DNA from: Gemmatimonas sp.
GTDB lineage: Bacteria > Pseudomonadota > Alphaproteobacteria > SMXQ01
Direction of reading: 5' to 3'
Length of the DNA stretch: 64,000 bases
Assembly (NCBI GenBank): GCA_050260515.1
Contig: JBLNCI010000040.1
Location: forward strand, 48,331 to 112,330
Made by a program: the position numbers and the translations under genes
Notes under the pieces: model-generated
What the model saw: only the letters and a program-made list of their open reading frames with translations
Told to the model about the DNA's origin: nothing
Database searches by the model: none
In this document: one piece after another, positions 37,135 to 53,238 of the stretch
Layout: each line of letters opens with the position of its first letter
Numbering within the stretch: the first letter of the stretch is position 1

Positions 37135-37183
37135 TGTTCCTCGCTGTCCTCCTTGACGTACGCGTAGGTTGGTTAGAAGACGC

Positions 37184-37666
37184 TCACGCCGAGCGGGCGG
37201 CCCGTGAGGGTTCCCGCGCGGCGGATTCGGGTTCGGCGCTGGCGTTGAGGTTCTCGAGCATGCGCCCGAGGGCGACGCGCAGCGCATCGGTCTCGCGCGG
37301 CGTCATGCCGGCGAGAAGGATTTTTTCGTAGTCGCGGAAATAGACCGGGCGCTCCTTCTGCGCGAGCGCGCGGCCCTTCGGCGTGATGAAGACGATGACC
37401 TCGCGGGCGTCCTGGCCGCTGCGGGCGCGGCGCACGAGACCGCGCGCCTCCATGCGCGAGACGACGCGCGACAGCGTCGACAGCTCGATGCCGGTGAGGC
37501 GGGCGAGCTCGCCCACCGGGCGGCCGTCCTTCGCCATCAGGCGATAGAGGACGCGCACGCCCTCGAACTTGAGGCCGTAGGCGCGCGCATGGCGGTTGAC
37601 CGAAGCCATCACCTGGCTGGCGATCTGATGCATGAGAAAGGGTACCGACCAGTCGGCGTTCGCCAT
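37184..37666 (-). CDS. MarR-family transcriptional regulator
   Basis: Start MANADWSVPF. It has a winged helix ELARLTGIELSTLSRVVSRMEARGLVRR. It lies immediately upstream of the UbiD gene on the same strand. Confidence 0.8.
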   Translation of the reverse strand: MANADWSVPFLMHQIASQVMASVNRHARAYGLKFEGVRVLYRLMAKDGRPVGELARLTGIELSTLSRVVSRMEARGLVRRARSGQDAREVIVFITPKGRALAQKERPVYFRDYEKILLAGMTPRETDALRVALGRMLENLNASAEPESAAREPSRAARSA

Positions 37667-37740
37667 GCCCGGCGCCTCCCCGCGCCGTGGCGGACAGCAA
37701 GCGACCCCATGGGGCCGCAGGTCCGCCGGGCGCGAACGAT

Positions 37741-37792
37741 GCCCCAAACAATTTGCAGGTGCAAGTAATTTGGGGCGCAAGATTCTTGCGCC
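37741..37792. promoter_or_regulatory. Two adjacent inverted repeats between tauE-like stop and marR start (operator and/or terminator candidates)
   Basis: GCCCCAAACAATTTGCAGGTGCAAGTAATTTGGGGC contains the inner near-palindrome TTGCAG-GTGCAA. It is followed by GGCGCAAGATTCTTGCGCC. Confidence 0.4.
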
Positions 37793-37825: not shown

Positions 37826-38590
37826 CTAGAACAGGCCCTGACGCACCATATTGAGGCCGATCAGCACCAGCGCGATCAGCAGCACCTTGCGGAAGGTGTC
37901 CTCGTTGATGCGGCCGCGGATCCACTGGCCGGCGAGCATGCCGACGAACACCGGGATGCAGGCGATCGCCGTCGGCACGACGTGTTCGGCGCGCAGCACG
38001 CCCTCGGCGACGTAGGCGATGCCGGTCGGGATGATGCCGAGGAGATAGACGAGGGCGATGGTGCCGATGAACTCGTCCTTCGGCACCCGGAGCGCGACCA
38101 TGAACATGATGACGGCGGGGCCGATGAACAGCGTGAGCCCGCCGAAGAAGCCGCCGGTCACGCCGACCAGGATCGACAGCCACAGCGCGTGCTGCTTCGG
38201 CACCGCGAGCTTCGGCTGCAGCAGGTTGACGAGCGAGAAGCCCGCGACGGCCGCGCCGACGACGATCTGCAGCGACTGCGAGTCGATGCCGACCAGCGTC
38301 TTGGCGCCGAGCCATGTCCCGGCGATCACCGCCACCATCATCGGCCAGAAGTTGCGCAGCGCGACGAGGAAGTAGCCGCCCTGGAACGTCTGCCAGACGT
38401 TCATGATCAGCACCGGCCCGTACATCAATGCGACCGCTTCGCGGATCGGCACCGAGGTGTAGAGCAGCGGCAGCGCGATCATCGGCAGGCCGACGCCGAG
38501 CACGCCCTTGGCGAGACCGCCGGCGAACAGCGCGGCGGCAGCGGCGGCGAGGAGAAGAGGTGAGCTGTCGATCATCAGGGTGGGCGTCAT
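37826..38590 (-). CDS. TauE/SafE family sulfite/anion exporter-like membrane protein
   Basis: About 254 aa and polytopic, with a GxxxG-rich internal duplication (LGVGLPMIALPLL... / GVTGGFFGGLTLFIGPAVIMF) typical of the TSUP/TauE family. Confidence 0.7.
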   Translation of the reverse strand: MTPTLMIDSSPLLLAAAAAALFAGGLAKGVLGVGLPMIALPLLYTSVPIREAVALMYGPVLIMNVWQTFQGGYFLVALRNFWPMMVAVIAGTWLGAKTLVGIDSQSLQIVVGAAVAGFSLVNLLQPKLAVPKQHALWLSILVGVTGGFFGGLTLFIGPAVIMFMVALRVPKDEFIGTIALVYLLGIIPTGIAYVAEGVLRAEHVVPTAIACIPVFVGMLAGQWIRGRINEDTFRKVLLIALVLIGLNMVRQGLF

Positions 38591-38679
38591 GGGGCGGCAC
38601 ACCGTAGCCAAACAGCGTCGCGCGTGCTAACCGAAATTTCGCAGAGCGATATGGGGAGATTTACGTGTCGGACGTGGGG

Positions 38680-39888
38680 ATGATCGTCATTGCCGGAGCG
38701 GGGCACGCGGGCGGGCGCGCCGCCGAGGCGATGCGCCAGGCGGGCTACACCGGACGCATCGTGCTGGTCGGCGACGAGTCGCATCCGCCGTACGAGCGCC
38801 CGCCGCTGTCGAAGGAGATGCTGGCGACCGAGTACGCGCCGGAGAAAGCCTATCTCGCGCCGCTCGCCGCCTGGGCCGAGAAGACGATCGAGCTTCGCCT
38901 CGACGCCAGGGTCGAAGGCCTCGACCGCGCGTCGCATCGCGTCCATCTCGCCGGCGGCGAGGCGCTGCCCTACGACCGGCTGCTGATCGCGACCGGCGGC
39001 CGCGTGCGCACGCTGTCGGCGCCGGGTGCCGCACTCGCCGGCGTCCACTACATCCGCTCGATCAAGGATTCGCTCGCTCTCAAGGCCGAGCTCAAGCCGG
39101 GCGGCCGCGTCGTCGTCATCGGCGGCGGCTTCATCGGCCTCGAGGCCGCGGCGGCCGCCATCAAGCTCGGCTGCAAGGCGACGGTAATCGAGGCCCAGGC
39201 CGAGCTCCTCAACCGTGTCATGGACCCGTTGATGGGCCGCTGGTTCGAGCAGCTCCATCGCGCCAACGGCGTCGAGGTGCTGAAGGGCGTCACCATCGAG
39301 CGCCTCGAGGGTCGCGACCGCGTCGAGGCGGTGGTGCTGACGTCGGGCGATCGCATCGACGCCGACGCCGTCGTGATCGGCATCGGCATCATCCCGAACG
39401 TGGAGATCGCCGCGAACGCCGGCATCGAGGTCGGCAACGGCGTCAAGGTCGACGAGTTCGGCGTCAGCTCCGATCCGGACGTGTTCGCCGCCGGGGACGT
39501 CGCGTTCCACCTCAATCCGATCCTCGGCCGTCACGTGCGGCTCGAGTCGTGGGCCAATGCCCAGAACGGCGGCATCGCCGTCGCGCGCAACATGGTTGCC
39601 GAACCGGCGCCGTACGTCGACGTGCCGTGGTTCTGGACCGATCAATTCGGCGCCAACATCCAGATCGCCGGCGCGCCGCAGGCCTGGGACCGCATCATCG
39701 TGCGCGGCAAGGCGGAATCCGGCAAGTTCATCGCGTTCGCGCTGCATGGAGCCAAGGTGGTCGGCGGCACCGCGGTGAACCTCGGCCGCGACATGCGTTT
39801 CATTAAGTCGCTGATCCAGTCGGGTAAGGACGTGCGCGACGAGGACCTCGCGAACGAGGCCGTGCAGATGCGAGCCTTGGCGGGGTGA
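38680..39888 (+). CDS. FAD-dependent NAD(P)H:ferredoxin reductase (putidaredoxin/rubredoxin-reductase class)
   Basis: MIVIAGAGHAGGRAAEAMRQAG (FAD GxGxxG), VVVIGGGFIGLEAAAA (NAD GxGxxG), and a C-terminal dimerisation domain. A GTG at 38665 is an alternative start. Confidence 0.85.
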   Translation: MIVIAGAGHAGGRAAEAMRQAGYTGRIVLVGDESHPPYERPPLSKEMLATEYAPEKAYLAPLAAWAEKTIELRLDARVEGLDRASHRVHLAGGEALPYDRLLIATGGRVRTLSAPGAALAGVHYIRSIKDSLALKAELKPGGRVVVIGGGFIGLEAAAAAIKLGCKATVIEAQAELLNRVMDPLMGRWFEQLHRANGVEVLKGVTIERLEGRDRVEAVVLTSGDRIDADAVVIGIGIIPNVEIAANAGIEVGNGVKVDEFGVSSDPDVFAAGDVAFHLNPILGRHVRLESWANAQNGGIAVARNMVAEPAPYVDVPWFWTDQFGANIQIAGAPQAWDRIIVRGKAESGKFIAFALHGAKVVGGTAVNLGRDMRFIKSLIQSGKDVRDEDLANEAVQMRALAG

Positions 39889-39959: not shown

Positions 39960-41840
39960 ATGGCGACGAAAGTGAAGGCCAACAAGCCGGCCGCGAAGTC
40001 CGGAGCGAAGACGCGCAAGGCGGCGAAGTCGGACGGGATCGACGCCCCGGCGAACATCGGCAATCCGCGCTTGGGCTGGGCGTCCGACGCGATCGCCGAG
40101 CTGTTGGCGCGCATGGACTTCCCCTACATCAGCCTGGTGCCGGGCGCGTCGTATCGCGGCTTCCACGATTCGATCGTCAACTACCTCGGCAACAAGAACC
40201 CGCGCATGCTCGTGAATCTGCACGAGGAGCATGCGGTCGCCGTCGCCCACGGCTGGGCCAAGGTCACCGACAAGCCGCTGCCGGTGGCGCTGCACTCGAA
40301 CGTCGGCCTGTTGCACGGCACCATGGCGATCTTCAACGCGTGGTGCGACCGCGTGCCGATGCTGATCTTCGGCGCCAACGGCCCGATCGACGCCAACGAG
40401 CGCCGGCCGTGGATCGACTGGATCCACTCGACGTCCGACATGGGCGCGCAGATCCGCGACTACACGAAGTGGGACGACACGCCGATGAGCGTGCCGGCCG
40501 CCTTCGAGTCGATCCTGCGCGGCTACCAGCAGACCTGCAGCCAGCCGTGCGCGCCGGTCTACATCTGCCTCGACGCCGGCCTCCAGGAGAAGAAGCTCGA
40601 CGAGCAGCCGGACTTCCCCGACCTCGCCCGCTACCAGCCGGCCGAGCCGCCGGCCCCGTCGGAGGAGCAGGTGGCGCGCGCCGCCGACTGGCTGCTCAAG
40701 GCCAAGCGGCCGCTGATCATGATGGGCCGCGGCTCGCGCGATGGCGCGGACTGGACGCACCGCGTGAAGCTCGCCGAGCAGCTCGGCGCGGCGGTGATCA
40801 CCGACATGCACAATCCGGCGGTGTTCCCGACCAACCATCCGAACCACCTCATCGAGCCGCGCTTCCGCCCGTCGCCGCGCTCGGCGGAGCTGGTCAAGCA
40901 GGCCGACGTCATCCTGATCCTCGACTGGCTCGATCCGGCGGGCTTCTTCGCCCAGACCCTGAAGCTGGGGCTCGCGCAGGCGCCGGAGGCGAAGATCATC
41001 AACGTCTCGCTCGACTCCTACCTGCATCGCGGCTGGAGCAAGGATCATCAGGCGCTGCCGGCCGCCGACCTGCCGGTGCTGTCGGGGACCGACGCGTTCG
41101 TCGCCGCGCTGCTCGAAGAGGTCATCAGCCGGACCAAAGGGAAAGCCAAGACGCTCGCGCCGTTCAAGCTGCCGCCGGCGCCGAAGGGTGCCGCCCGCGC
41201 GCTCGACAAGTCGCGCTCGCGCGGCGGCATGAACCTGCGCGAACTCGCCGACGCGACGGTGGCGGCGCTCGAAGGGTACGACGTCAGCTACATCAAGCTG
41301 CCGCTCGGCTGGCCGGGCGACGCGATCTCGTTCAATCACCCGCTCGATTACCTGGGCCACGACGGCGGCGGCGGCGTGGGCTCGGGCCCCGGGATCTCGG
41401 TCGGCTGCGCGCTCGCGCTCAAGGACTCGGGCCGCCTGCCGGTCGCGCTCCTGGGCGACGGCGACTTCATGATGGGCAGCAACGCGCTGTGGACCGCGGC
41501 CCACAACAAGATCCCGTTCCTCATGGTGGTGTGCAACAACCGCTCGTACTTCAACGACGAGACCCACCAGGAGCGGATGGCCGTCGTCCGCGGCCGCCCG
41601 CCCGAGAACAAGTGGATCGGCCAGCGTCTCGACGAACCGGCGATCGACCTCGCGGCGATCGCCCGCGCCCAGGGCCTCGAGGCCGAGGGCCCGGTGTGGG
41701 ACGCCGCGGGCCTGCGCAAGGCGCTCGAGCGCGGCATCGAGGTGGTGGAGAACGGCGGGACCTACGTCATCGACGCCCGCATCGACACCGGCTACGCCGA
41801 GCCGATGATGACGCACCCCGGCAACCGCAAGGCGGGGTAG
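39960..41840 (+). CDS. Thiamine-diphosphate-dependent enzyme (benzoylformate decarboxylase / acetolactate synthase superfamily)
   Basis: 626 aa. It has Lys/Ala-rich N-terminal ~30 aa and a ThDP-binding motif GDGDFMMGSNALWTAAHNKIPFLMVVCNN. Confidence 0.8.
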   Translation: MATKVKANKPAAKSGAKTRKAAKSDGIDAPANIGNPRLGWASDAIAELLARMDFPYISLVPGASYRGFHDSIVNYLGNKNPRMLVNLHEEHAVAVAHGWAKVTDKPLPVALHSNVGLLHGTMAIFNAWCDRVPMLIFGANGPIDANERRPWIDWIHSTSDMGAQIRDYTKWDDTPMSVPAAFESILRGYQQTCSQPCAPVYICLDAGLQEKKLDEQPDFPDLARYQPAEPPAPSEEQVARAADWLLKAKRPLIMMGRGSRDGADWTHRVKLAEQLGAAVITDMHNPAVFPTNHPNHLIEPRFRPSPRSAELVKQADVILILDWLDPAGFFAQTLKLGLAQAPEAKIINVSLDSYLHRGWSKDHQALPAADLPVLSGTDAFVAALLEEVISRTKGKAKTLAPFKLPPAPKGAARALDKSRSRGGMNLRELADATVAALEGYDVSYIKLPLGWPGDAISFNHPLDYLGHDGGGGVGSGPGISVGCALALKDSGRLPVALLGDGDFMMGSNALWTAAHNKIPFLMVVCNNRSYFNDETHQERMAVVRGRPPENKWIGQRLDEPAIDLAAIARAQGLEAEGPVWDAAGLRKALERGIEVVENGGTYVIDARIDTGYAEPMMTHPGNRKAG

Positions 41841-42640: not shown

Positions 42641-42996
42641 GGCGACCCCCTCCGACGGGGTCCAAACGGCCGGTACTTGTAAGGTATCGGCGGCCGTTTG
42701 TCTCCCGGTTAACGTGCGCGCCCGGAACATGGCTCCCGCGAGGCCCGCAACCGGCCTCGGCGTTGACAAAAGCCGCGCCGGAATAGGAAAATACGCAACC
42801 CTTAGATATTTACCCTTTCGCTGAAATCCAGCCCCGGAGGTAAAAACTCCGGGAGCGCGGCATCCGGCGGCAGCAAGGGGCCGGTGCAGACCTCCCAAGG
42901 CGCTCCAGTGCGGGCATACCAGCGGGCAGGCGCGGCGGCGGCCGGGGCGTTTCGCGTGCCGGTCCGGACAACCCTCGACAAGGAACAAGAAAGCAC

Positions 42997-43305
42997 ATGG
43001 CGGAGCATCTGGTAGCGAAGACCGGAGAGATCGAGGACGGCCAGGCCAAGCGCGTGGTCATCGGTCAGAACGAGATCGCGATCTACAACCTCGGCGGCAA
43101 GTTCTACGCCACCGACGACATCTGCACCCACGCGTACGCGTCGCTCGCCGACGGCTACATCGAGGAGGGCGCGGTCGAGTGCCCGCTCCACGCCGCGCGC
43201 TTCGACATCGTCACCGGCAAGGCGCTGAGCATGCCGGCGACCACCGACCTTCGCGTCTACAAGGTGCGCGTCGACGGCGACAGCATCTACGTCGACGTCG
43301 CGTAA
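42997..43305 (+). CDS. Rieske [2Fe-2S] ferredoxin (oxygenase electron-transfer component)
   Basis: 102 aa. The cluster motif is [27 protein letters not shown] (CxH-x17-CxxH). Confidence 0.85.
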
Positions 43306-43327
43306 CCGAACGCAACGGGAGATCGAC

Positions 43328-43912
43328 ATGGCCGAGGTCAAAGACGCTGGCGTGAAGGGTGGGGAACTGATCCCTCGCGTCGCGTGGGAGGATTTCCCCG
43401 AGGGCCTCAAGGCGGCGCTCAAGCCGAAGGTCGACCGGCTCGGCTACTGCGGCGAGATCTGGCAGGTCGGCGCCAATCTGCCGAAGAGCATGCTCTCGTT
43501 CTGCAACATGACCGAGGACCTCAAGGACGAGATGCCGATGAAGCTCGTCGAGCTCACGGCGCTTACCGTCGCCGGGGTCATGGGCAACACCTACGAGAAG
43601 AACCAGCACGAGCGTCTCGCCGACAAGCTCGGCTACGGCCGCGAGTGGATCGCCGACGTCGGCCGCCTCAACCCGACCGAGGCCACGGTGATGTCGGACG
43701 ACGAGAAGAAGGTCCAGAAGTTCATCATCGCCGCGATCTACCGCCGCGGCCACGACTCGCGCGCGCTGTTCGAGGACGCGGCCAAGGCGATCGGCGCCAA
43801 GGCCGCCGTCGGCGTGCTGCTGTCGATCGGCCGCTGCATCCAGCACGCGATCTTCCGCAACGTGCTGGAGCTCGCGCCGCCGGTGACCTCCGTATTCGAG
43901 GGCAAGAAGTGA
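43328..43912 (+). CDS. Carboxymuconolactone decarboxylase (PcaC-like) family protein
   Basis: 194 aa. The core GYCGEIWQVGANLP...LTALTVAGVMGNTYEKNQHERL resembles the PcaC motif EYCWGEIWSRPGL...LAMLTAL. Confidence 0.55.
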   Translation: MAEVKDAGVKGGELIPRVAWEDFPEGLKAALKPKVDRLGYCGEIWQVGANLPKSMLSFCNMTEDLKDEMPMKLVELTALTVAGVMGNTYEKNQHERLADKLGYGREWIADVGRLNPTEATVMSDDEKKVQKFIIAAIYRRGHDSRALFEDAAKAIGAKAAVGVLLSIGRCIQHAIFRNVLELAPPVTSVFEGKK

Positions 43913-44460
43913 GCGACCTCGTTCCGCGCATCGAGTTCGAGGACATCGAGCCCGGCCTCAAGGAGCTGTTCCGCCCGCGCGTCGAGCGGCTCGGCTATCT
44001 CGGCGAGTTCTTCAAGGTGATGTCGGCGTGCCCCGAGACAATGAAGGGGTTTTTCACCATCACCGAGAGCCTCAAGAAGGAGCTGCCCGACAACCTGTCG
44101 CAGCTCGTGTCGGTCGCGCTGTCGTCACGGCTCGGCAACACGTACGAGCAGTACCAGAACGAGCGGCTGTCGCTGAAGCTCGGCCTCAGCAAGGAGTGGG
44201 TGCGCTCGGCGCTCGGCGCCGTCGACGATCCGGCGAGCGTCTTCACGCCCGAGGAGAAGGCGGTTCAGAAGTACGCGATCGCCGCCGGCCAGGGCATCGG
44301 CCGGGGCGTCGAGGCGGAGTTCAAGGCGCTGGTCGAGGCGGTCGGCCCTCGCAAGGCGGTCGCCGTGATGTGGCTGGTCGCGCGCACGATCTCCCACGCG
44401 ATGATCTCGAACACCCTGCACCTGGCCTCGCCGGTCACGTCGGTCTTCGACAACGGATAA
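43909..44460 (+). CDS. Carboxymuconolactone decarboxylase (PcaC-like) family protein, paralogue
   Basis: A GTG start overlaps the preceding stop (GTGA). GYLGEFFKVMSACPE...LVSVALSSRLGNTYEQYQNERL is homologous to the upstream gene. Both share the C-terminal motif PVTSVF. Confidence 0.5.
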   Translation: MSDLVPRIEFEDIEPGLKELFRPRVERLGYLGEFFKVMSACPETMKGFFTITESLKKELPDNLSQLVSVALSSRLGNTYEQYQNERLSLKLGLSKEWVRSALGAVDDPASVFTPEEKAVQKYAIAAGQGIGRGVEAEFKALVEAVGPRKAVAVMWLVARTISHAMISNTLHLASPVTSVFDNG

Positions 44461-44498
44461 CCGCAAGCCAACAAGACACCTGAACAAGGGAAAGCATC

Positions 44499-45506
44499 AT
44501 GGCGTTCAAACTCAAGGTCCCCGACACCTTCCTGTGGCTCACCGAGGCCGACGTCTGCAAGCTGATCGACCTCAAGGATTCGATCTCGGCGCTCGAGAAG
44601 GGCCTGATCATGGAGGCCGAGGGCAAGGCCGTGAACATGACCAAGACCCAGACCGTGTGGCCGGTCGGCTCGATGAACGTCACCGGCGCGCAGATGCTGG
44701 GCGACGGGCTGGTCGGCGCCAAGGTGTGGACCAACGCCAACACCCATGCCGCGCCGCTCATCATCCTGCACGGCTCCGAGGACGGTCAGATCCGCGCCAT
44801 CATCGAGGCGTTTGCGCTCGGCCAGATGCGCACCGCGGCGCTGTCGTCGACCGCCACCAAGTGGCTGTCGGACGAGAAGGCCGACACCATGGCGATCATG
44901 GGCTCGGGCCATCAGGCGCTGCCGCAGGTCTCGGCGGTGGTGAAGGTCCGCCCGATCAAGCACGTCAAGGTGTGGAGCCGCACGCCGGAGAACCGCGCCG
45001 CCTTCGTCGAGATGATCCGCAAGGCCTATCCGAACCTCAAGGTGACCGACTGCGCGACCACCGCCGAGGCGTGCAAGGACGCCCAGGTCATCACCAGCTT
45101 CACGCGCGCCAAGGAGCCGTTCGTGATGTCGGACATGGTCGCCAAGGGCACCCACATCAACGCCGGCGGCGCCATCATCCCGACCAACGCCGAGATCGAC
45201 CCCGCGATCTTCCCGCGCTGCGCCGTGGTCGCCTGTGACAATTTGCCGCAGGTCCAGAAGGGCTCGAAGGAACTCATGGATTTCGTGGCTTCGGGGAAGG
45301 GGAGCTGGGACAAGATCTACCCGCTCAACCAGGTCGTTTATAAGAAAATGACCCGTCCCAAGGACGCCGATCTCACCATATATAAGTTCATGGGATATGG
45401 TCTCGCCGACCTGGCTTCCGCCACCGAGATCTACAAGCGGGCGCTGGCGCAGGGCGTGGGCAAGCAATACCCCCACCCGAAGCGGTCCGAGCCCAAGCTG
45501 CTTTAG
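44499..45506 (+). CDS. Ornithine cyclodeaminase / mu-crystallin family NAD(P)-dependent enzyme
   Basis: 335 aa. It has a Rossmann motif MAIMGSGHQALPQV and the OCD-family architecture. Confidence 0.75.
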   Translation: MAFKLKVPDTFLWLTEADVCKLIDLKDSISALEKGLIMEAEGKAVNMTKTQTVWPVGSMNVTGAQMLGDGLVGAKVWTNANTHAAPLIILHGSEDGQIRAIIEAFALGQMRTAALSSTATKWLSDEKADTMAIMGSGHQALPQVSAVVKVRPIKHVKVWSRTPENRAAFVEMIRKAYPNLKVTDCATTAEACKDAQVITSFTRAKEPFVMSDMVAKGTHINAGGAIIPTNAEIDPAIFPRCAVVACDNLPQVQKGSKELMDFVASGKGSWDKIYPLNQVVYKKMTRPKDADLTIYKFMGYGLADLASATEIYKRALAQGVGKQYPHPKRSEPKLL

Positions 45507-45531
45507 TTCACCGTCCGAAAGGAGGACGACG

Positions 45532-46671
45532 ATGCCGTTCGATTTCAACCAGAAGTTCAAGATGGTCGACCAGTCCGGCCGCCAGACGTCGGACAACAAG
45601 GCCTGGGGAGATCACTCGCTGGAGCTGTGGGCGCCGCTCATCATCCGCAAGGAGGAGATCGACGCCGAGGTGAAGCGCCTGATGGCGCTGCCGCGCCCGA
45701 ACAACGGCGTGCGCCGGACGCAGTTCGTGCATCCGCAGTGCGAGCCGGGCCTCCTGTCGTTCGCGCCGGGCATCGGCGTGTCGCTCGACGTGCTGCTGCC
45801 GGGCGAGCGCACCAAGCCGGTGCGGCAGAACTCGTCGGTCGTCGACTTCTGCATCCAGGGCAAGGGGTCGAAGATCGTCAACGGCAAGCGCTTCGAGTTC
45901 GACCAGTACGACGTGCAGACGACGCCGGCGATGACGGTGCACGAGTACATGAACGAGTCGAACGAGCCGCACGTCCGGCTCCGCTACTCGAACGCACCGC
46001 TGCTCGAGCGCCTCAAGATCCACTGGGTCGACGAGGATCCGCCGGAGAAGCCGAAGGACGTCACCGAGGCGGTCTCCGAGGCCCACGAGAAGGGCAAGGA
46101 GATGCCGAAGAGCCCGTACGGCACCTTCCAGCTCACCGACGACGGCGCCTGGCTGATGCCGTACGAGGAGCTCATCAACCCGAAGCCGATCGCGATCGAC
46201 CCGCATTCGTGGCCGTGGAAGAAGGTCAAGGCCGAGCTCGACAAGCTTGCCGCGCTGGGCTCGTCGTACAAGGGCCGCCGCCTGTACCTGCTCTACGATC
46301 CGGCGACGGGCCGCACCAACGGCACCAACCCGAACTTCTTCTCGGCGATCACCATCCGGCCGCAGGGCATCGTCGACCGTCCGCACCGTCACGCGTCCGC
46401 CGCCATCAACTACTACTTCGGCGGCGAGGGGCACTCGGTGGTGCAGGGTCAGCGCCTCGACTGGAAGGCGGGCGACCTGATGTTCTCGGCGCCGGGCTGG
46501 GCGATCCACAACCACGCCACCGACGTCGGGCCGGTGTACGAGATGACGATTCAGGACATGCCGTTCTGCATCAACACCGACGCGCTGCTGTGGCAGGAGG
46601 ACCTGAAGGGCCCGATCTCGCTGCTCGGCTCCCACGCCGGCTTCGAGACCAACCGCCAGAAGGTCGCCTGA
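45532..46671 (+). CDS. Bicupin dioxygenase-like protein (gentisate / 1-hydroxy-2-naphthoate dioxygenase-like)
   Basis: 379 aa. It has an AGGAGG RBS and a cupin metal motif RPHRHASAAINYYFGGEGHS (HxH...E...H). Length and two-domain layout are consistent with bicupin ring-cleavage dioxygenases. Confidence 0.55.
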   Translation: MPFDFNQKFKMVDQSGRQTSDNKAWGDHSLELWAPLIIRKEEIDAEVKRLMALPRPNNGVRRTQFVHPQCEPGLLSFAPGIGVSLDVLLPGERTKPVRQNSSVVDFCIQGKGSKIVNGKRFEFDQYDVQTTPAMTVHEYMNESNEPHVRLRYSNAPLLERLKIHWVDEDPPEKPKDVTEAVSEAHEKGKEMPKSPYGTFQLTDDGAWLMPYEELINPKPIAIDPHSWPWKKVKAELDKLAALGSSYKGRRLYLLYDPATGRTNGTNPNFFSAITIRPQGIVDRPHRHASAAINYYFGGEGHSVVQGQRLDWKAGDLMFSAPGWAIHNHATDVGPVYEMTIQDMPFCINTDALLWQEDLKGPISLLGSHAGFETNRQKVA

Positions 46672-46785
46672 ACGAACGCCGCGCGAGCGGTTCACGACCA
46701 GGGGGAGCTAGCCTCCCCGCAAACTCCGGAGGGGGGCGAAAGCCCCCCTCTCGCCATACCCACTCCCGCTACAAGGTAAAAAGAC

Positions 46786-47694
46786 GTGATCAAGCTGAAG
46801 AAGGATTTCCTGCGCGGCTCGTACCCGCCGGTCGTCACTCCGTTCAAGAACGGCAAGGTGGACTACGACACGTTCGCCAAGCTCGTGAACTACATGATCA
46901 AGAACGGCACGCACGGCATCCTGGTGACGGGAACGACCGGCGAGCCGTCGACGCTCACCACCGACGAGCGCATCAACCTCTACCGCACCGCGGTCGAGGT
47001 GACCGACGGCCGGGTGCCGGTGGTCGCGGCGACCGGCTCGCAGTCCGAAGCCGAGACGATCGTGCTGTCGGAAGGCGCCGAGAAGGCGGGCGTCGACTCG
47101 CTGCTGATCGTGACCCCGTACTACGTGCGTCCGCCGCAGCGCGGTCTCGTCCAGTACTACAACAACATGTGCAAGCGCACGTCGCTCCCGGTGATGCTCT
47201 ATCACATCCCGGGCCGCACCGCGGTCGCGGTGACGCTCGATACCCTCGAGCAGATCGTCGAGAAGTCCGACAACTTCGTCGGCATCAAGCACGCGGTGAA
47301 CGACCTCGGGTTCGTCACCCACATGCTCGACAAGTTCGGCTTCGACTTCCGCGTGTTCGTTGGCCTCGAGGACCTGTCGTTCCCGATGCTGTGCGTCGGT
47401 GCCTGCGGCCTGATGAACGCCGTCGGCAACGTCGCGCCGAAGAAGGTCGCGCAGCTCTACGACAAGACCGCGGCGGGCGACATGGCCGGCGGCCGCAAGC
47501 TCCACTTCGAGCTGATGGAGCTGAACGAGGCGGTGTTCTACGACACGAACCCGATCGCGATTAAGTACATCATGATGAAGATGGGCCTGCTCGCGAAGAA
47601 CGAGCACCGTCTGCCGATGGCGCCGGCGACCGACGAGGTCGCGAAGCGCCTCGACGGCGTCATGCAGCGCGCGGGCCTCAAGGCCAAGCGCTGA
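46786..47694 (+). CDS. Dihydrodipicolinate synthase/N-acetylneuraminate lyase family protein (aldolase, hydratase-aldolase or deaminase)
   Basis: GTG start, 302 aa. Contains GILVTGTTGE...the Schiff-base Lys region FVGIKHAVND and the Y-x-x-P motif. Confidence 0.75.
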   Translation: MIKLKKDFLRGSYPPVVTPFKNGKVDYDTFAKLVNYMIKNGTHGILVTGTTGEPSTLTTDERINLYRTAVEVTDGRVPVVAATGSQSEAETIVLSEGAEKAGVDSLLIVTPYYVRPPQRGLVQYYNNMCKRTSLPVMLYHIPGRTAVAVTLDTLEQIVEKSDNFVGIKHAVNDLGFVTHMLDKFGFDFRVFVGLEDLSFPMLCVGACGLMNAVGNVAPKKVAQLYDKTAAGDMAGGRKLHFELMELNEAVFYDTNPIAIKYIMMKMGLLAKNEHRLPMAPATDEVAKRLDGVMQRAGLKAKR

Positions 47695-47729
47695 TCGCCA
47701 CCGCGGTTGCGATACATCTTGCGATACGA

Positions 47730-47763
47730 GGGCCCGGCGGAAACGCCGGGCCCTTTGCATTTG
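47730..47763 (+). terminator. Rho-independent terminator closing the 42997-47694 operon
   Basis: GGGCCCGGCGGAAACGCCGGGCCC followed by TTTGCATTT. Confidence 0.7.
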
Positions 47764-47817
47764 GTGCTATCCGTCGCCGAGATGCTGGGCGGCATCGGCG
47801 AGCAGCGGTAACGCGGC

Positions 47818-48414
47818 TCACGCCCGCGTCAGCGCGGTCCAATAGGCGTCGGCCTGGGCACGTCGCGCGGTGACAGTAGGCGCCAGCTCGCCGCTCGCGA
47901 CGCCGGTGCCCGCAGCGAGATCGGCGATGACCAGCAGGACCTCGCTCGCGGAGGCGACGAATCCGTCGTAGGCATCGGGCGGCACGTCGTCGTAGCGCGG
48001 CAGCAGGCGAGCCTGAGTTGCGTCCCACGCCTCGCGAATGAGCTGGAGCGACGGGTTGTCGCGAAGCGCCGCCCAGCGTTCGGCCGACGAGCGCAGACGC
48101 GCGCCGTCGCCCGTAGCTGCCACGTCGGCGAACGTTGCTGCGTCAGACAACGCGATGAACACCGGCGCGAGGCTCGCCGCGGCATCGCGCCGCGGATCGG
48201 TGAGGCGCAGGACGGCGTTGATCAGCCGCTCGACCGCCGCGGCGTGAACGACGGCGGCGATGGGGGCCGATTCCGGCGCCAGCCGGGTCGATCCCGCCCG
48301 CGCGTGGCCGAGCTCGAAATACGAGAGCAGCGCCGCGATCTCGCCCACGGCCGCATGGGCGGCGCGCGCGACGCCGATGATCTGTTGAGCGGTGTTCACG
48401 TGAGCGGGATTCAC
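47818..48414 (-). CDS. Hypothetical alpha-helical protein
   Basis: A GTG start is preceded by GGAGG (VNPAHVNTAQQI...). About 198 aa with no recognisable motif. The longer ORF to 48510 lacks an RBS. Confidence 0.4.
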   Translation of the reverse strand: MNPAHVNTAQQIIGVARAAHAAVGEIAALLSYFELGHARAGSTRLAPESAPIAAVVHAAAVERLINAVLRLTDPRRDAAASLAPVFIALSDAATFADVAATGDGARLRSSAERWAALRDNPSLQLIREAWDATQARLLPRYDDVPPDAYDGFVASASEVLLVIADLAAGTGVASGELAPTVTARRAQADAYWTALTRA

Positions 48415-49222: not shown

Positions 49223-49284
49223 CCGGCCCCGCGCCGTGTGCTACACGAGCGCGGGATGAATCGAAGCACCGGAGACAACCGGCG

Positions 49285-51978: not shown

Positions 51979-53238
51979 TTACAGGCCCATGATCTTGCGA
52001 TAGCCGCTGTAGAAGCCGCGGATCATCGACTCGGTCACCATGTGGTCGGTGTCCTCGAAGTCGCGTCCGCCCATCTCCACGACGGCTTTTGCCTCGGGGT
52101 AGTTGGCGACGCCGAACTGCGTCGCCTCCATGACCTCGCTGTCGTCGGCGGAGACGAAGCCGGCCGGACCCATCAGGTTGGCCTGGCGCAGGCGCTTCAT
52201 GGTCATCTCCTCCGACTCGTCGGCGTAGCCGAAGAACGTCCAGTGGAGCTCGAACTCCTGCGGACTCACGGTCTGGATCTGGCGCATCGCGAGCGTGTTC
52301 GACTGCTGCTGGATGATCAGGTTCGGCCAGATCGTCTGCATGACGACGGTGGCGTCGCCCGGGAACTCCTTCTCGGGCTGCAGCATGTTGGGGTTGGCGA
52401 GCTTGAGATGCGCGATGTTCTGGCGGATGTCCTCGGTGCCCTCGTCGTGCTTCTGCTCGCCGCGCTGCGAGATCTGCACACCGTGCAGCCCGGTGCCATC
52501 GAGCTGCACCTTCGACGGGTTGTCGGCGCGGAACAGGCTGAACGAGACCAGGAACACGTGCATCAGCGACGCGTGGTACGGGTCCTTGATGTTCTCGAAC
52601 ATCAGCTTCCAGTTCGAGCGCAGGCGCTGACGCTCGTAGCCGAGGACCTTCAGCGGACGGCCGTTGAACACCCGGTTCACCCAGTGGAGCATCTTCGGCC
52701 CGAGGTACTCCTCGAACGACGGCATGCCGTGATCGAACGAGGCGAAGATCGTGCCGTTGTAGGTCGCGACCTTCAGCTCCTGCAGCCGATGCTCCTTCAT
52801 GTCGAAGTCCTTCGGCATGCCGCCGTGCTTCTTGAGCCCGCGGCGGAACGGGATGGCGATGGTCTCGCCCTTCAGGTTGTAGGTCCACTGGTGGTACGGG
52901 CAGATGAACTCGGTCTTGCCCTTGCCGTGGGTCTCGTAACAGAACTGCACGCCGCGGTGGGCGCAGCGGTTCGCGAACACGCGCACCTGGCCGGTCTCGT
53001 CGCGGGTGTAGATGACCGGCTTGGAGCCGATCTTGGTGGCGCGGAAATCGCCGGTGTTCGGGATCTCGCACTCGAAGCCGATGAAGCTGTAGGCGGAGCC
53101 GCCGAACACGACCTCCTGCTCGCGCGCGTAGATCTCGGGCGCGGAGTACACCCAGTAGGGGACGCGGGTGTATCCCTCCTCAGGCCAGGTGAAGTTCAGC
53201 GGCGAATTCTTCAGTTGGGTGGCCATGGCTCTTCCCAT
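51979..53238 (-). CDS. Rieske non-haem iron oxygenase alpha subunit
   Basis: 419 aa. The Rieske motif is CAHRGVQFCYETHGKGKTEFICPYHQW. The mononuclear Fe motif is DPYHASLMH (D-x2-H-x4-H) in the catalytic domain. Confidence 0.85.
   Translation of the reverse strand: MGRAMATQLKNSPLNFTWPEEGYTRVPYWVYSAPEIYAREQEVVFGGSAYSFIGFECEIPNTGDFRATKIGSKPVIYTRDETGQVRVFANRCAHRGVQFCYETHGKGKTEFICPYHQWTYNLKGETIAIPFRRGLKKHGGMPKDFDMKEHRLQELKVATYNGTIFASFDHGMPSFEEYLGPKMLHWVNRVFNGRPLKVLGYERQRLRSNWKLMFENIKDPYHASLMHVFLVSFSLFRADNPSKVQLDGTGLHGVQISQRGEQKHDEGTEDIRQNIAHLKLANPNMLQPEKEFPGDATVVMQTIWPNLIIQQQSNTLAMRQIQTVSPQEFELHWTFFGYADESEEMTMKRLRQANLMGPAGFVSADDSEVMEATQFGVANYPEAKAVVEMGGRDFEDTDHMVTESMIRGFYSGYRKIMGL

Follow-up and report, generated by a model that had tools for sequence, protein, structure and literature searches.

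Six genes on the plus strand of the window (the whole stretch of 64,000 nucleotides that was analyzed) form a real operon, widely conserved as a catabolic unit. The operon belongs to a larger cluster, also conserved, of which it makes up the lower half and which includes a UbiD-family decarboxylase, transporters and a Rieske oxygenase (Table 1). With a little less than even confidence, we propose that the ring of an aromatic acid is opened and that the product is degraded to pyruvate and succinate semialdehyde by the six-gene lower half of this cluster.

Table 1. Features of the operon and of the surrounding cluster, in positions of the window.
Feature	Position	Strand	Evidence
UbiD-family (prFMN) decarboxylase	35650..37287	-	TIGR00148 284 > cut-off 245
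MarR-family regulator beside UbiD	37184..37780	-	weak NCBIfam MarR-type matches only
TauE/SafE (TSUP) membrane transporter	37826..38611	-	PF01925, 106 bits
Ferredoxin-NAD(+) reductase	38665..39888	+	AndAa-like 412, HcaD-like 381 bits, both sub-cut-off
Thiamine-diphosphate (TPP) enzyme, benzoylformate-decarboxylase/acetolactate-synthase type	39960..41840	+	PRK08327-like 210 bits, sub-cut-off
Rieske [2Fe-2S] ferredoxin, 102 aa	42997..43305	+	PF00355, 73 bits
AhpD/CMD-fold protein 1, 194 aa, no CxxC motif	43328..43912	+	fold match
AhpD/CMD-fold protein 2, 183 aa, tandem paralog	43909..44460	+	41% identical to paralog 1
OCD/mu-crystallin family NAD(P)-binding protein, 335 aa	44499..45506	+	PF02423, 153 bits
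Bicupin, 379 aa, gentisate/salicylate 1,2-dioxygenase superfamily	45532..46671	+	PDB phmmer, Foldseek
DapA-like (DHDPS-family) class I aldolase, 302 aa	46786..47694	+	PF00701, 255 bits
Terminator-like GC-rich hairpin with T-rich tail, operon end	47729..47765	+	sequence and folding
Rieske oxygenase beta, 169 aa	51443..51952	-	AndAd-like 108 bits, sub-cut-off
Rieske oxygenase alpha, NagG/AndAc type	51979..53226	-	AndAc-like 433 bits vs cut-off 750
TRAP transporter fused permease	53457..55403	-	TIGR02123 496 > cut-off 321
Periplasmic-binding-protein-fold protein	55420..56400, upstream boundary approximate	-	homologs 46-48% identical

Operon structure and conservation of gene order

All six genes were confirmed where an earlier note on this DNA had placed them (42997-47694), and an independent gene call on a Logan assembly gave the same six products (102, 194, 183, 335, 379 and 302 amino acids). 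The profile searches that the note had proposed matched PF00355, PF02423 and PF00701 in the ferredoxin, OCD and DHDPS proteins. Intergenic spacings in gene order are 22, -4 (a GTGA overlap), 38, 25 and 114 nt; the tight packing described earlier therefore holds for the first four gaps but not for the last one, between the bicupin and DHDPS genes, which contains two GC-rich hairpins. The strong terminator placed at 47730-47763 is a real hairpin (GGGCCCGGCG-GAAA-CGCCGGGCCC at approximately 47730-47755, then TTTGCATTT), which folds with -31.8 kcal/mol (z = -4.2) and is equaled by none of 200 shuffles; a consensus terminator scan of the sequence did not include the 47730-47755 hairpin among its calls. 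In the upstream region, where the note had placed a promoter, there is one sigma-70-like site at 42763-42792 (TTGACA-18-GAAAAT, 10 of 12), but chance alone would give 0.6 sites of this kind there. The remaining window is housekeeping chromosome, with genes for the glycine cleavage system, SMC, ETF-QO and an IspE-like kinase.

We examined the genomic neighborhoods of 42 species-representative loci, using as denominators (35 to 42) the loci testable for each gene, and the arrangement recurs far beyond chance. Of 40 testable loci, 37 have the DHDPS gene directly after the bicupin gene, no more than 400 nt away on its downstream side. The bicupin gene is immediately preceded by the OCD gene in 24 of 37 loci; a CMD-like gene is found upstream in 22 of 36 and a Rieske ferredoxin gene ahead of the module in 22 of 35. 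The earlier note had suggested looking for the same gene order in other genomes, and the CMD-OCD-bicupin-DHDPS order is indeed present in many Alphaproteobacteria MAGs, in Paraburkholderia, in unrelated metagenome contigs and in one Chloracidobacterium-labelled (Acidobacteria) MAG; it extends, in some cases with gene replacements, to cultured Burkholderiaceae and Rhodococcus. This recurrence bears out the claim of one conserved catabolic unit, and our literature search returned no paper describing the module. In thirteen marine loci the bicupin gene is accompanied only by UbiD, MarR and DHDPS genes, with no OCD or CMD gene within 8 kb, so the redox and isomerase steps proposed below are not universal.

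Domain analysis of the operon proteins

The bicupin begins with MPFDF at 45532 rather than at the ATG at 45397 of the longest ORF. Its matches by phmmer in the PDB are gentisate 1,2-dioxygenase (GDO; 3bu7, 2e-18) and salicylate 1,2-dioxygenase (SDO; ~1e-11), with domains cross-aligned, and its top Foldseek matches are again GDO and SDO (E ~1e-20, TM ~0.64); all of these closest relatives cleave 2-hydroxybenzoates. The 3-His site, which sits in the C-terminal cupin, is invariant, as are H328 and R249 (H285, H287, H326, H328, R249). The bicupin is thus predicted from its sequence to be a 3-His Fe(II) ring-cleavage-type dioxygenase with a catalytic C-terminal cupin, and the invariant site and the GDO/SDO fold argue against the non-catalytic or sugar-related cupin that the earlier note had allowed for. 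Gln108, Arg127, Trp172 and Asp174 are described as conserved across all GDOs, and mutation of Arg127 abolishes SDO activity (PMC11264262). In the bicupin, however, these four pocket residues are changed: Gln108 of SDO aligns to Thr, and the other three positions are occupied by N293 (invariant), E337 (near-invariant) and T339 (invariant). Because the four GDO residues are missing, the enzyme may differ in its substrate, in how it binds that substrate and even in where it cleaves. The TIGR02272 score is 68, far under the cut-off of 442, and the best NCBIfam match is the 5-aminosalicylate dioxygenase MabB, at 83 bits also far under its cut-off.

The best NCBIfam match of the DapA-like protein is TIGR02313, 'HpaI-NOT-DapA' (305; cut-off 397), while TIGR00674 dapA scores 269, above its cut-off of 206; the motifs GTTGE, PYY, LYHIPGRT and GIKHA are kept. 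In Ralstonia and Cupriavidus the gene is swapped for HpaH plus HpaI. The Ralstonia solanacearum row reads CMD-like, OCD, bicupin, HpaH, HpaI, SSADH, with scores against cut-offs of 451/351 for HpaH, 389/369 for HpaI and 714/646 for SSADH. The order in Cupriavidus necator N-1 is HpaH, HpaI, LysR, Rieske ferredoxin, FAH, OCD, bicupin, RHO alpha, with HpaH (446) and HpaI (402) both above equivalog cut-offs. Rhodococcus koreensis has OCD-DHDPS-FAH. Paraburkholderia, which carries the module on secondary replicons, retains a DapA-like gene, 63% identical and annotated as 2,4-dihydroxyhept-2-ene-1,7-dioate aldolase. Since Ralstonia has both a CMD-like gene and HpaH, the CMD-like protein is not the hydratase, and the DapA-like enzyme therefore corresponds to HpaH plus HpaI; it would be a 2-oxohept-ene-1,7-dioate hydratase-aldolase or a 4-hydroxy-2-oxoheptanedioate aldolase. 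The NAL/DHDPS superfamily takes in the hydratase-aldolases HBPHA and CBPHA (PMC5380162), and a hydratase-aldolase is known to act after a 1-hydroxy-2-naphthoate dioxygenase (PMC13077335). The pairing of a GDO-type dioxygenase with the DHDPS superfamily is thus established, and not unusual as had been supposed.

The OCD-family gene does remain an unusual partner, as our literature search found no paper placing this family in such a role. The protein scores far under the cut-offs of all NCBIfam equivalogs (best 145 vs 417). When it is aligned to alanine dehydrogenase 1omo, two members of the carboxylate triad are retained, the Lys and the second Arg; the first Arg is Asn, and Ala stands at the position of Asp228 of ornithine cyclodeaminase (OCD). 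To our knowledge, all characterized OCD-family enzymes act on a C=N bond and none on a nitrogen-free substrate.

The two genes earlier called PcaC-like merit that name at the level of fold, but not of Pfam: CMD scores 16.5 on paralog 1, under the cut-off of 23, and does not match paralog 2. An AlphaFold (AF2) model of paralog 1 (pLDDT 92) has Bmp8, the CMD-family protein SMU.961 and AhpD as its top Foldseek matches (TM 0.75-0.78), and the invariant polar residues of this protein are R37, Y40, E63, K66, N87, Y89, E90, Q93, R169, H173 and N178. The paralogs are aligned over 179 amino acids, and the GTG start of the second, as read from the sequence, overlaps the stop codon of the first by 4 nt. 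Two copies are present in the closest clade and one in most other loci; in Cupriavidus and Rhodococcus an FAH/HpaG-like gene takes their place.

The wider cluster

The ferredoxin resembles HcaC (114 bits) and AndAb (95 bits) in NCBIfam, both under equivalog cut-offs. The best PDB match of the oxygenase alpha subunit is salicylate 5-hydroxylase (7c8z, 3e-136), followed by terephthalate dioxygenase (1e-97), and the independent gene call assigns SnoaL_4 and Ring_hydroxyl_B domains to the beta subunit. Oxygenase, reductase and ferredoxin are all nearest to AndA/NagG systems. The alpha gene is present in 17 of 42 loci and the reductase gene, co-directional with the operon, in 21 of 42; in related loci the reductase gene is upstream on the same strand, and so is the TPP gene in those that have it. 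Reductase, alpha and beta subunits are all conserved around the operon. The ferredoxin is most likely the electron carrier from the reductase to the three-component NagG/AndAc-like oxygenase rather than a partner of the cupin.

The UbiD-family protein probably starts about 60 codons inside its ORF. Its best PDB match is 7pda (8e-108), which is PhdA, a phenazine-1-carboxylate decarboxylase (PMC10850782). Its gene is near the bicupin gene in 18 of 42 loci, UbiD-MarR pairs adjoin the module in many loci, and the TauE/SafE gene is present in 17 of 42. The TPP gene lies between reductase and ferredoxin in 8 of 42 loci and is a cluster member only in the closest clade. On an Antarctobacter plasmid, a 49% identical TPP homolog is located ~2.4 kb from a dihydroxyphthalate-decarboxylase-like gene, from which two LysR-type genes separate it. 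The position of the TRAP permease gene beside the oxygenase is conserved, a TAXI binding protein joins it in related loci, and the permease probably takes up an aromatic acid. The periplasmic-binding-protein-fold protein is possibly a second decarboxylase: two records among its homologs are annotated '4,5-dihydroxyphthalate decarboxylase', and Paraburkholderia (42% identical) and five MAG loci also have a homolog beside the module. We found neither a succinate-semialdehyde dehydrogenase nor UbiX in the window, which counts against the pathway proposed below. The upper oxygenase is not the same in every lineage: Paraburkholderia has a VanAB-type enzyme, Ralstonia a two-component flavin monooxygenase and Rhodococcus a P450, the pattern expected of a common lower pathway.

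A proposed pathway and its alternatives

From the observed gene content, conservation, fold assignments and gene displacements we infer a pathway, including its substrate, the direction of its redox step and all catalytic activities. The TRAP system would import an aromatic carboxylic acid, the three-component oxygenase (alpha, beta, the operon ferredoxin and the upstream reductase) would hydroxylate it, and the UbiD-type and dihydroxyphthalate-decarboxylase-like enzymes would remove carboxyl groups. By homology, the bicupin would then cleave an ortho-hydroxy aromatic acid at C1-C2 to a linear C7 2-oxo-dienedioate; the product of salicylate 1,2-dioxygenase is 2-oxohepta-3,5-dienedioate (PMC4600096). 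No other enzyme of the module depends on NAD(P), and the OCD protein may contribute the two electrons required for the oxidation level of 2-oxohept-ene-1,7-dioate, a role suggested by elimination and by carbon and redox bookkeeping. The AhpD/CMD-fold proteins may isomerize, or decarboxylate and isomerize, the dienol, since an FAH/HpaG-like protein replaces them elsewhere. Finally, the DapA-like aldolase would hydrate and cleave the product to pyruvate and succinate semialdehyde, since HpaH and HpaI, with SSADH in Ralstonia, take its place elsewhere. These displacements, together with the FAH/HpaG-like replacement, suggest that the last steps of the pathway act on nitrogen-free C7 2-oxo-diacids.

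The same end products would result from a homoprotocatechuate-type route, which we consider unlikely. Here the substrate of the bicupin would be a C8 catecholic acid, for example 3,4-dihydroxyphenylacetate, and the OCD protein would stand in for HpaE by oxidizing the semialdehyde, perhaps as a cyclic hemiacetal. The CMD-like proteins (FAH elsewhere) would replace the HpaF/HpaG isomerase-decarboxylase, and the DapA-like enzyme HpaH plus HpaI. The equivalog-level HpaH and HpaI, the Ralstonia SSADH and the HpaG-C-terminal-like FAH protein of Cupriavidus and Rhodococcus fit this route too, as does the aldolase's best model, named for a DapA-like HpaI substitute. CMD is a decarboxylase family, and the loss of Arg127, which contacts the carboxylate, would be in keeping with a substrate bound otherwise than via a ring carboxylate. 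The HsaA/HpaB-like two-component monooxygenase of the Ralstonia cluster, related to p-hydroxyphenylacetate 3-hydroxylase, counts against our preferred explanation, since it would make a catechol, not a plain salicylate, and fit this route equally well. However, no homoprotocatechuate dioxygenase of the cupin type is known to us, and the bicupin's closest relatives act on 2-hydroxybenzoates; NagG/AndAc-type oxygenases and UbiD enzymes, likewise, act on ring-bound carboxylates. An OCD-family aldehyde dehydrogenase is no less unprecedented than a nitrogen-free reductase, and the route is impossible for the minimal bicupin-DHDPS pair and for the marine loci without OCD and CMD.

The earlier note had suggested a cyclic imine or amino acid as substrate or intermediate. 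In its most developed form, an aminated aromatic acid would give a ring-fission product with an enamine or alpha-imino acid (e.g. 6-amino-2-oxohepta-3,5-dienedioate), the OCD protein would reduce the imine, and after hydration the DapA-like enzyme would run the DapA reaction backwards to pyruvate and L-aspartate semialdehyde. This draws on the textbook chemistry of both families, including the C=N bond on which the characterized OCD-family enzymes are known to act. It also agrees with the dapA equivalog score, which weighs against our preferred explanation, with a retained motif whose Arg presumably binds aspartate semialdehyde, with the nearness of the oxygenase components to the anthranilate dioxygenase AndAaAbAcAd models, with the MabB match and with E337, which could bind an amine. 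We nevertheless regard it as improbable: the HpaH/HpaI displacement and the SSADH that follows in Ralstonia point to nitrogen-free C7 diacids and succinate semialdehyde, no aminotransferase, deaminase or amidase is conserved alongside the module in the loci compared, the AndA and MabB scores are all far under cut-offs, and the OCD protein has the Asn and Ala substitutions described above. Very improbable is an incidental adjacency of a housekeeping lysine dapA gene and an amino-acid enzyme to an aromatic operon; the dapA score and the housekeeping character of the rest of the window would suit it, but the DHDPS gene accompanies the bicupin gene across several phyla and on Paraburkholderia secondary replicons, its best model is the non-DapA exception, and its place elsewhere is taken by HpaH plus HpaI rather than a further lysine gene.

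If the preferred reading, degradation of an aromatic acid to pyruvate and succinate semialdehyde, is true, the route uses two enzyme families never linked to such chemistry, and a nitrogen-free reductase role for the OCD family would be unprecedented.

Organization of the operon and the surrounding cluster

The six plus-strand genes that the earlier note had described are all present, and an independent gene call made on the Logan assembly of the same sequence yields identical products: a Rieske ferredoxin, two paralogous proteins related to AhpD and carboxymuconolactone decarboxylase (CMD) that are 41% identical to each other, an ornithine cyclodeaminase (OCD)/mu-crystallin family protein, a bicupin, and a DHDPS-family (DapA-like) protein. 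The spacings between consecutive genes are 22, -4, 38, 25 and 114 nt, the second AhpD/CMD-like gene starting with GTG and overlapping the stop of the first. The G+C content of the window is approximately 69%. Two GC-rich hairpins, GGGGGAGCTAGCCTCCCC (46701) and GGGGGGCGAAAGCCCCCC (46731), each of them single-copy in the window, lie in the spacer between the bicupin and DHDPS genes; in related loci this spacer is about 5 nt long, as opposed to 114 nt here. These hairpins may be a palindromic element that has inserted there, or an attenuator within the operon. The earlier note also placed a terminator downstream of the operon and a promoter upstream of it. The former is borne out by a strong hairpin (-31.8 kcal/mol, z = -4.2); for the latter we found a single promoter-like site, no better than chance expectation. 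Another hairpin (12-bp stem with 9 GC pairs and T-rich flanks) lies just 3' of the TPP enzyme gene and is rated terminator-like on the minus strand by the scanner, although it could stop transcription from either side. An Rfam E-value scan of 35000-57000 for riboswitches and leader RNAs returned only chance-level matches.

Features of the operon and its surroundings in the window
Feature	Coordinates	Strand	Remarks
SMC chromosome-segregation protein and its shadow ORF	10081-14295	- (shadow, +)	
DNA methylase	16836-18026		N6_N4_Mtase and RAMA domains
Glutathione S-transferase	34861-35553	-	adjoins UbiD gene
UbiD-family decarboxylase	35650-37287	-	best solved relative PhdA (phenazine-1-carboxylate decarboxylase), 8e-108
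MarR regulator			cluster member
TauE/TSUP transporter			cluster member
Ferredoxin reductase	38665-39888	+	cluster member
TPP enzyme			cluster member in closest clade only
Hairpin 3' of TPP gene	41894-41920		
panD (aspartate 1-decarboxylase)	42260-42640	-	TIGR00223, 172 against cut-off 106
Promoter-like site	42763-42792		
Operon	42997-47694	+	
Rieske ferredoxin		+	102 aa; gene 1 of operon
AhpD/CMD-like 1	43328-43912	+	194 aa
AhpD/CMD-like 2		+	183 aa
OCD/mu-crystallin protein		+	335 aa
Bicupin		+	379 aa; real start 45532, not ATG at 45397
Bicupin-DHDPS spacer	46672-46785		
DHDPS-family protein		+	302 aa
Terminator hairpin	~47730-47755		
Four unrelated genes	47818-51274	both	
Rieske oxygenase beta subunit	51443-51952	-	other side of operon
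Rieske oxygenase alpha subunit	51979-53226	-	best solved relative salicylate 5-hydroxylase NagG, 3e-136
Fused TRAP permease			cluster member
PBP-fold protein	55420-56400	-	family sometimes annotated 4,5-dihydroxyphthalate decarboxylase

The operon makes up one half of a larger gene cluster, which is shared by the window and some 20 related loci. Within this cluster the Rieske ferredoxin (PF00355, 73 bits) is a soluble protein of about 100 amino acids with CTH and CPLH motifs (Rieske CxH...CxxH), and a reductase and oxygenase alpha and beta subunits are conserved nearby, as is expected of the ferredoxin of a three-component system. Because all of these components are nearest to the And (AndAaAbAcAd) and Nag (NagAaGHAb) systems, we read the ferredoxin as the likely electron carrier of a NagG/AndAc-like oxygenase and not as a partner of the cupin. 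The resemblance to the nag pathway extends to the location of oxygenase genes beside a gentisate dioxygenase-like gene. The differences are that all scores fall under equivalog cut-offs, that the components are encoded on two strands in the window, and that the operon has no NagK/NagL-type maleylpyruvate isomerase or hydrolase.

In the window the cluster is split at two places. The panD gene, which separates the TPP gene from that of the Rieske ferredoxin, is found at that position in 0 of 42 related loci, which have a gap of approximately 400 nt there instead; it looks like a local insertion into a gene string that is co-directional elsewhere. The second split, between the DHDPS and oxygenase beta genes, spans just 0.7-3 kb in related loci; here it holds genes for an unknown 198-aa protein (minus strand), a PG_binding_1 protein (plus), a Glyco_transf_7N/7C-like glycosyltransferase (plus) and an MFS transporter (minus).

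The periplasmic-binding-protein (PBP)-fold family at the far end is labelled either "4,5-dihydroxyphthalate decarboxylase" or "ABC transporter substrate-binding protein". Besides the window, its members lie at L044, 16218-17198; L050, 3151-4128; and L049, 9007-9978. The family recurs beside the cluster, adjoins TauE and a NagG-like oxygenase on a plasmid of Massilia sp. WG5, and on an Antarctobacter plasmid is separated by approximately 2.4 kb from a homolog of the window's TPP enzyme (49% identity). It is probably an inconsistently annotated enzyme of the upper pathway. A search of the window for the GxSGASG motif of a UbiX partner found none. Maleylpyruvate isomerases are members of the glutathione S-transferase family; the transferase encoded next to UbiD is not among the families recurring with the module.

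Two observations concern the contig itself. Long ORFs with high third-position GC occur on both strands at 10081-14295, where the minus-strand ORF encodes an ordinary SMC protein and the plus-strand ORF is its shadow. A protein 100% identical to AhpD/CMD-like 1 is labelled "Gemmatimonas sp." MAG at NCBI. Since all related loci come from Alphaproteobacteria MAGs, and since the window encodes a DNA methylase that we take to be of the CcrM type typical of Alphaproteobacteria, the contig is probably mis-binned.

The bicupin protein

The AF2 model of the bicupin, of moderate confidence (pLDDT 71, pTM 0.77), consists of two beta-rich domains. When this model was used in a Foldseek search, the top 17 matches were gentisate 1,2-dioxygenases (GDO) and salicylate 1,2-dioxygenases (SDO), with E ~1e-20 and TM 0.57-0.64, placing it in the fold of the GDO family (class III cupin dioxygenases); these enzymes are also its closest relatives by sequence (E = 2e-18). 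The domains cross-align: the C-terminal cupin of the bicupin matches the catalytic N-terminal cupin of SDO. It is accordingly the C-terminal cupin that carries the HxH...H site for iron, the N-terminal cupin reading RQN at the HxH position. H285, H287 and H326 align to His119, His121 and His160 of SDO and are invariant among 30 family members, as are H328 (SDO His162) and R249 (SDO Arg83). With such relatives and an invariant 3-His site, the premise of the earlier note that the cupin is catalytic and not sugar-related stands, and we rejected a sugar-acid cupin of the KduI/KdgF-like kind on the same grounds.

The substrate pocket is different. Gln108, Arg127, His162, Trp172 and Asp174 of SDO are described as conserved in all GDOs, and mutation of the arginines is reported to abolish activity (PMC11264262). 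In the window bicupin Gln108 aligns to Thr, and the other three positions are occupied in the family by invariant Asn293, near-invariant Glu337 and invariant Thr339, so that among these pocket residues His162 alone is kept. The protein also scores far below the cut-offs of TIGR02272 (68.3 against 442.1 bits) and MabB (82.7 against 650). Because the 3-His site is kept while the GDO pocket residues are replaced, the bicupin is predicted to cleave aromatic rings as a catalytically active member of the GDO superfamily, without being a gentisate dioxygenase itself. A plain gentisate pathway is unlikely in view of these replacements and of the operon having no maleylpyruvate isomerase or hydrolase.

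The other enzymes of the module

The AhpD/CMD-like proteins miss the threshold of PF02627 (CMD/PcaC), for which the cut-off is 23: paralog 1 reaches 16.5, paralog 2 has no match to it, and neither matches any NCBIfam model. An AlphaFold model (pLDDT 92) has the all-helical AhpD-like fold and matches Bmp8, the CMD-family protein SMU.961 and AhpD (TM 0.73-0.78, probability 1.00). On inspection of the sequences, the CxxC/Cys motif is absent, its position reading G-N-x-Y-E-x-N-Q-H, which sets these proteins apart from AhpD-type peroxidases and Bmp8-type thiol enzymes; several polar positions, on the other hand, are invariant across the two paralogs. We rejected a role as hydratase because Ralstonia carries the AhpD-fold gene alongside a genuine hydratase gene, HpaH.

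The OCD homolog matches PF02423 over its full length (residues 15-317, 153.4 bits against a cut-off of 24). It shares with the OCD/mu-crystallin family (ornithine and lysine cyclodeaminases, ketimine reductases, archaeal alanine dehydrogenase, BhcD, SbnB) the Rossmann domain and, in comparison with archaeal alanine dehydrogenase 1omo, the Lys and second Arg of the carboxylate-binding triad. It differs in that the first Arg is replaced by Asn and in that the cyclodeaminase Asp, which we take to be catalytic Asp228 of the P. putida OCD structure, is replaced by Ala (GGA versus GAD in 1omo). All subfamily models score far under their cut-offs (PRK07589, 87 against 350; PRK06407, 131 against 337). 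The context differs as well, comprising aromatic ring cleavage and nitrogen-free downstream enzymes. We also considered the OCD homolog as cis-dihydrodiol dehydrogenase of the Rieske oxygenase and rejected this role: the gene stays with the bicupin where the oxygenase is absent or monooxygenases are found instead.

The DHDPS-family protein passes the dapA model TIGR00674 (268.8 against 206.15 bits) but scores best on TIGR02313, "HpaI-NOT-DapA" (2,4-dihydroxyhept-2-ene-1,7-dioate aldolase), at 305.3 bits, under the cut-off of 396.7; its Paraburkholderia ortholog reaches 304 bits. Its translation retains the GTTGE, PYY, LYHIPGRT (YxxPxRT) and GIKHA motifs, which presumably supply the Schiff-base Lys, the Tyr/Thr/Tyr triad and the distal-carboxylate Arg (K161, Y133, T44, Y107 and R138 of E. 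coli DapA).

Conservation of the module

In order to determine how the module is conserved, we scanned one genome per GTDB species for the bicupin and obtained 42 loci with 53-93% identity, nearly all from uncultured Alphaproteobacteria. Seven metagenome contigs picked by their bicupin homolog and five replicons of cultured strains complete the census, in which the denominators are loci with enough flanking sequence. The most conserved core is the bicupin-DHDPS pair, the DHDPS gene lying on the same strand less than 400 nt downstream in 37/40 loci. Upstream of the bicupin gene we found the OCD gene (immediately adjacent, 24 of 37 loci), a CMD-like gene (22 of 36) and the Rieske ferredoxin gene (22 of 35). 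The order CMD-OCD-bicupin-DHDPS is repeated in metagenome contigs chosen for length, where the module stands alone, after MarR, after UbiD-MarR, or after the Rieske ferredoxin with oxygenase alpha/beta and a TRAP-TAXI transporter.

A minimal variant consisting of UbiD, MarR, bicupin and DHDPS genes only is found in thirteen marine loci from Rhodospirillaceae MAGs (in the range L027-L040), with no OCD or CMD gene within 8 kb. Frequent neighbors in these loci are genes for an alpha/beta hydrolase, a methyltransferase and proteins that on inspection resemble TauD and PhyH. Contigs L052 and L057, which are not among these loci, each have a Meth_synt_2/URO-D-like gene beside UbiD in divergent orientation. 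Members of the bicupin family are frequent among Alphaproteobacteria MAGs from soil, freshwater and marine settings, many of which have the full four-gene module; given this spread, the substrate is likely an environmentally relevant aromatic acid.

Gene displacement in cultured relatives

A tblastn search of plasmids and secondary replicons identified bicupin orthologs with 39-55% identity. The bicupin orthologs include BEI72756 of Paraburkholderia and QIK21325 of Ralstonia. In Paraburkholderia largidicola and P. caribensis the gene order is bicupin, DapA-like (63% identical, annotated as 2,4-dihydroxyhept-2-ene-1,7-dioate aldolase), CMD-like, OCD. Genes for a VanA-type oxygenase, an MFS transporter of aromatic acids and a VanB reductase precede this set, and a homolog of the dihydroxyphthalate-decarboxylase-like protein follows it. 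Ralstonia solanacearum has no DapA-like gene within 10 kb of the module; its locus consists of CMD-like, OCD, bicupin, HpaH, HpaI, succinate-semialdehyde dehydrogenase (SSADH) and second ALDH genes, with an HsaA/HpaB-like two-component monooxygenase upstream. The Cupriavidus necator N-1 locus encodes a reductase, an oxygenase-beta-like protein, HpaH, HpaI, a LysR regulator, a Rieske ferredoxin, an FAH-family (HpaG-like) protein, OCD, bicupin and an oxygenase alpha subunit. In Rhodococcus koreensis, OCD, DHDPS and FAH genes lie on one strand and the bicupin gene is nearby, together with genes for a P450, a reductase, a VAO-type oxidase and an ALDH.

The HpaH (451 and 446 against 351), HpaI (389 and 402 against 369) and SSADH (714 against 646) proteins reach their NCBIfam equivalog or subfamily cut-offs. 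The FAH/HpaG-like protein, found only in Cupriavidus and Rhodococcus, scores 182 against 276 in Cupriavidus, and apart from it the window and annotated related loci contain no homologs of HpaD, HpaE, HpaF or HpaG. These gene arrangements therefore imply two non-orthologous displacements, one in which HpaH plus HpaI are the counterpart of the DapA-like gene and one in which the FAH/HpaG-like gene is the counterpart of the AhpD-fold gene. A Massilia sp. WG5 plasmid carrying a dihydroxyphthalate-decarboxylase-like gene, TauE, a NagG-like oxygenase, a DHDPS-family gene and a cupin gene was not counted as having the same module, its cupin being merely 28% identical.

Comparison with known pathways

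A close parallel to the bicupin-DHDPS pair is found in phenanthrene degradation, where PhdI (1-hydroxy-2-naphthoate dioxygenase) is followed by PhdJ (trans-2'-carboxybenzalpyruvate hydratase-aldolase). In both cases a GDO-family dioxygenase directly precedes a class I enzyme of the DHDPS/NAL superfamily, which includes the hydratase-aldolases that follow 1-hydroxy-2-naphthoate dioxygenase (PMC5380162, PMC13077335). A PhdJ-type enzyme frees pyruvate from a 2-oxo-3-enoate ring-fission product. In contrast, the aldolase of the module is DapA-like (269 bits on the dapA model) and not NahE/PhdJ-like, OCD-family and AhpD-like proteins are added, and the displaced variants are indicative of a C7 product that is monocyclic, as opposed to a benzaldehyde.

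With the hpa/hpc homoprotocatechuate pathway (HpaD, E, F, G, H, I, then SSADH) the module would share its end-game, genuine HpaH and HpaI replacing the DapA-like gene in Ralstonia and Cupriavidus, and SSADH being present in Ralstonia. However, the module is without HpaD, HpaE and HpaF; its dioxygenase is a cupin, its redox enzyme belongs to the OCD family and not to the ALDHs, and its isomerase/decarboxylase has the AhpD fold in most lineages. We classify the module as a probable lower pathway for aromatics, which joins the hpa route at its end-game and is built from other families. The opa pathway for o-phthalate and 2,3-dihydroxybenzoate was set aside as a match: its dioxygenase OpaC is a DhbA/CmtC homolog that is nowhere called a cupin, and it uses an ACMSD-like decarboxylase (PMC6362003). 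A full-text literature search for the combination of OCD, cupin/GDO, DHDPS, UbiD and hpaH/hpaI returned no paper describing it. In public records the bicupin is annotated as gentisate 1,2-dioxygenase or cupin, the AhpD/CMD-like protein as hypothetical protein or alkylhydroperoxidase, the OCD homolog as ornithine cyclodeaminase family, and the DHDPS-family protein as DapA (4-hydroxy-tetrahydrodipicolinate synthase) or HpaI.

Proposed pathway and its alternatives

The characterized GDO-family relatives matched in our searches cleave 2-hydroxy-aryl-carboxylates. Gentisate/salicylate dioxygenase cuts the ring between C1 and C2 (PMC11264262), and salicylate 1,2-dioxygenase converts salicylate to 2-oxohepta-3,5-dienedioate (PMC4600096), a linear C7 2-oxo diacid whose oxidation level exceeds that of 2-oxohept-ene-dioate by two electrons. 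Because the displaced variants carry HpaH, HpaI and SSADH, we infer that the module ends with conversion of 2-oxohept-ene-1,7-dioate to 4-hydroxy-2-oxoheptanedioate and then to pyruvate and succinate semialdehyde. The bicupin would thus open an o-hydroxy aromatic acid by C1-C2 cleavage to give a linear C7 2-oxo-dienedioate. The OCD homolog, as the sole NAD(P) enzyme in the module, would carry out a two-electron reduction of this product. The AhpD-fold proteins would then catalyze double-bond migration, or decarboxylation where the ring bears an extra carboxyl. Hydration and retro-aldol cleavage would fall to the DapA-like enzyme, for which the DHDPS/NAL enzymes acting after 1-hydroxy-2-naphthoate dioxygenase provide the precedent; gene displacement in the orthologous modules suggests that it stands in for HpaI. 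In the minimal marine loci the aldolase may act on the dienedioate directly. Judged by homology, gene context and stoichiometry, it is probable that the module serves as a lower pathway for aromatics, with pyruvate and a C4 aldehyde acid free of nitrogen as its products; the full sequence of steps we put forward tentatively, with somewhat less than even confidence. The substrates considered include an arylsulfonate (because of the TauE/TSUP gene), phenazine-1-carboxylate (because of the similarity to PhdA), dipicolinate/teneraic acid, L-DOPA/betalamic acid, 2,3-dihydroxybenzoate and hydroxy-isophthalate, and these are neither supported nor excluded.

A homoprotocatechuate-type route would account equally well for the HpaG-like, HpaH and HpaI genes and for the Ralstonia monooxygenase. 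It seems unlikely, as it requires an unprecedented cupin catechol dioxygenase together with aldehyde oxidation by an OCD-family enzyme, and it cannot operate in the minimal loci. The earlier note favored a cyclic imine or amino acid as substrate or intermediate; spelled out, this would mean imine reduction followed by a reverse DapA reaction giving aspartate semialdehyde. Such a route suits the established reactions of the OCD and DHDPS families and the resemblances to AndA and MabB, yet it is at odds with the displacement by HpaH, HpaI and SSADH, and the loci share no conserved nitrogen-handling gene; we consider it very unlikely. That the DHDPS gene is a housekeeping dapA that merely neighbors the operon is hardly credible: a lysine-biosynthesis context is contradicted by its conservation beside the bicupin and by the occurrence of HpaH and HpaI in its place in Ralstonia and Cupriavidus.

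Implications

A bolder reading of the ring-cleavage scheme, which we consider possible though rather doubtful, is that the four-gene module (AhpD-fold, OCD-family, bicupin and DapA-like proteins) represents an unrecognised central ring-cleavage pathway in which the OCD enzyme acts on a nitrogen-free ring-fission product. For example, the OCD enzyme could transfer hydride to C2 of 2-oxohepta-3,5-dienedioate, and the AhpD-fold protein could then move the double bond. In the minimal UbiD-MarR-bicupin-DHDPS loci, UbiD could run as a carboxylase converting a phenol to the o-hydroxy acid, pulled by irreversible ring cleavage. If true, the module would rank with the gentisate, homogentisate and homoprotocatechuate pathways, fed by lineage-specific upper oxygenases; it would supply the missing downstream route for direct salicylate-type 1,2-cleavage, and would represent the first non-imine chemistry of the OCD/mu-crystallin family. 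The presence of the module in Ralstonia solanacearum, Paraburkholderia caribensis, P. largidicola, Cupriavidus necator N-1 and Rhodococcus koreensis would make it directly testable in culture.

The catalogue of aromatic lower pathways is generally regarded as nearly complete. A widespread module composed of a divergent GDO-like bicupin, an OCD enzyme, AhpD-fold proteins and a DapA look-alike would add a route to them and extend the chemistry of two families, and the routine names "gentisate 1,2-dioxygenase", "4-hydroxy-tetrahydrodipicolinate synthase", "ornithine cyclodeaminase" and "hypothetical protein" would need correcting.
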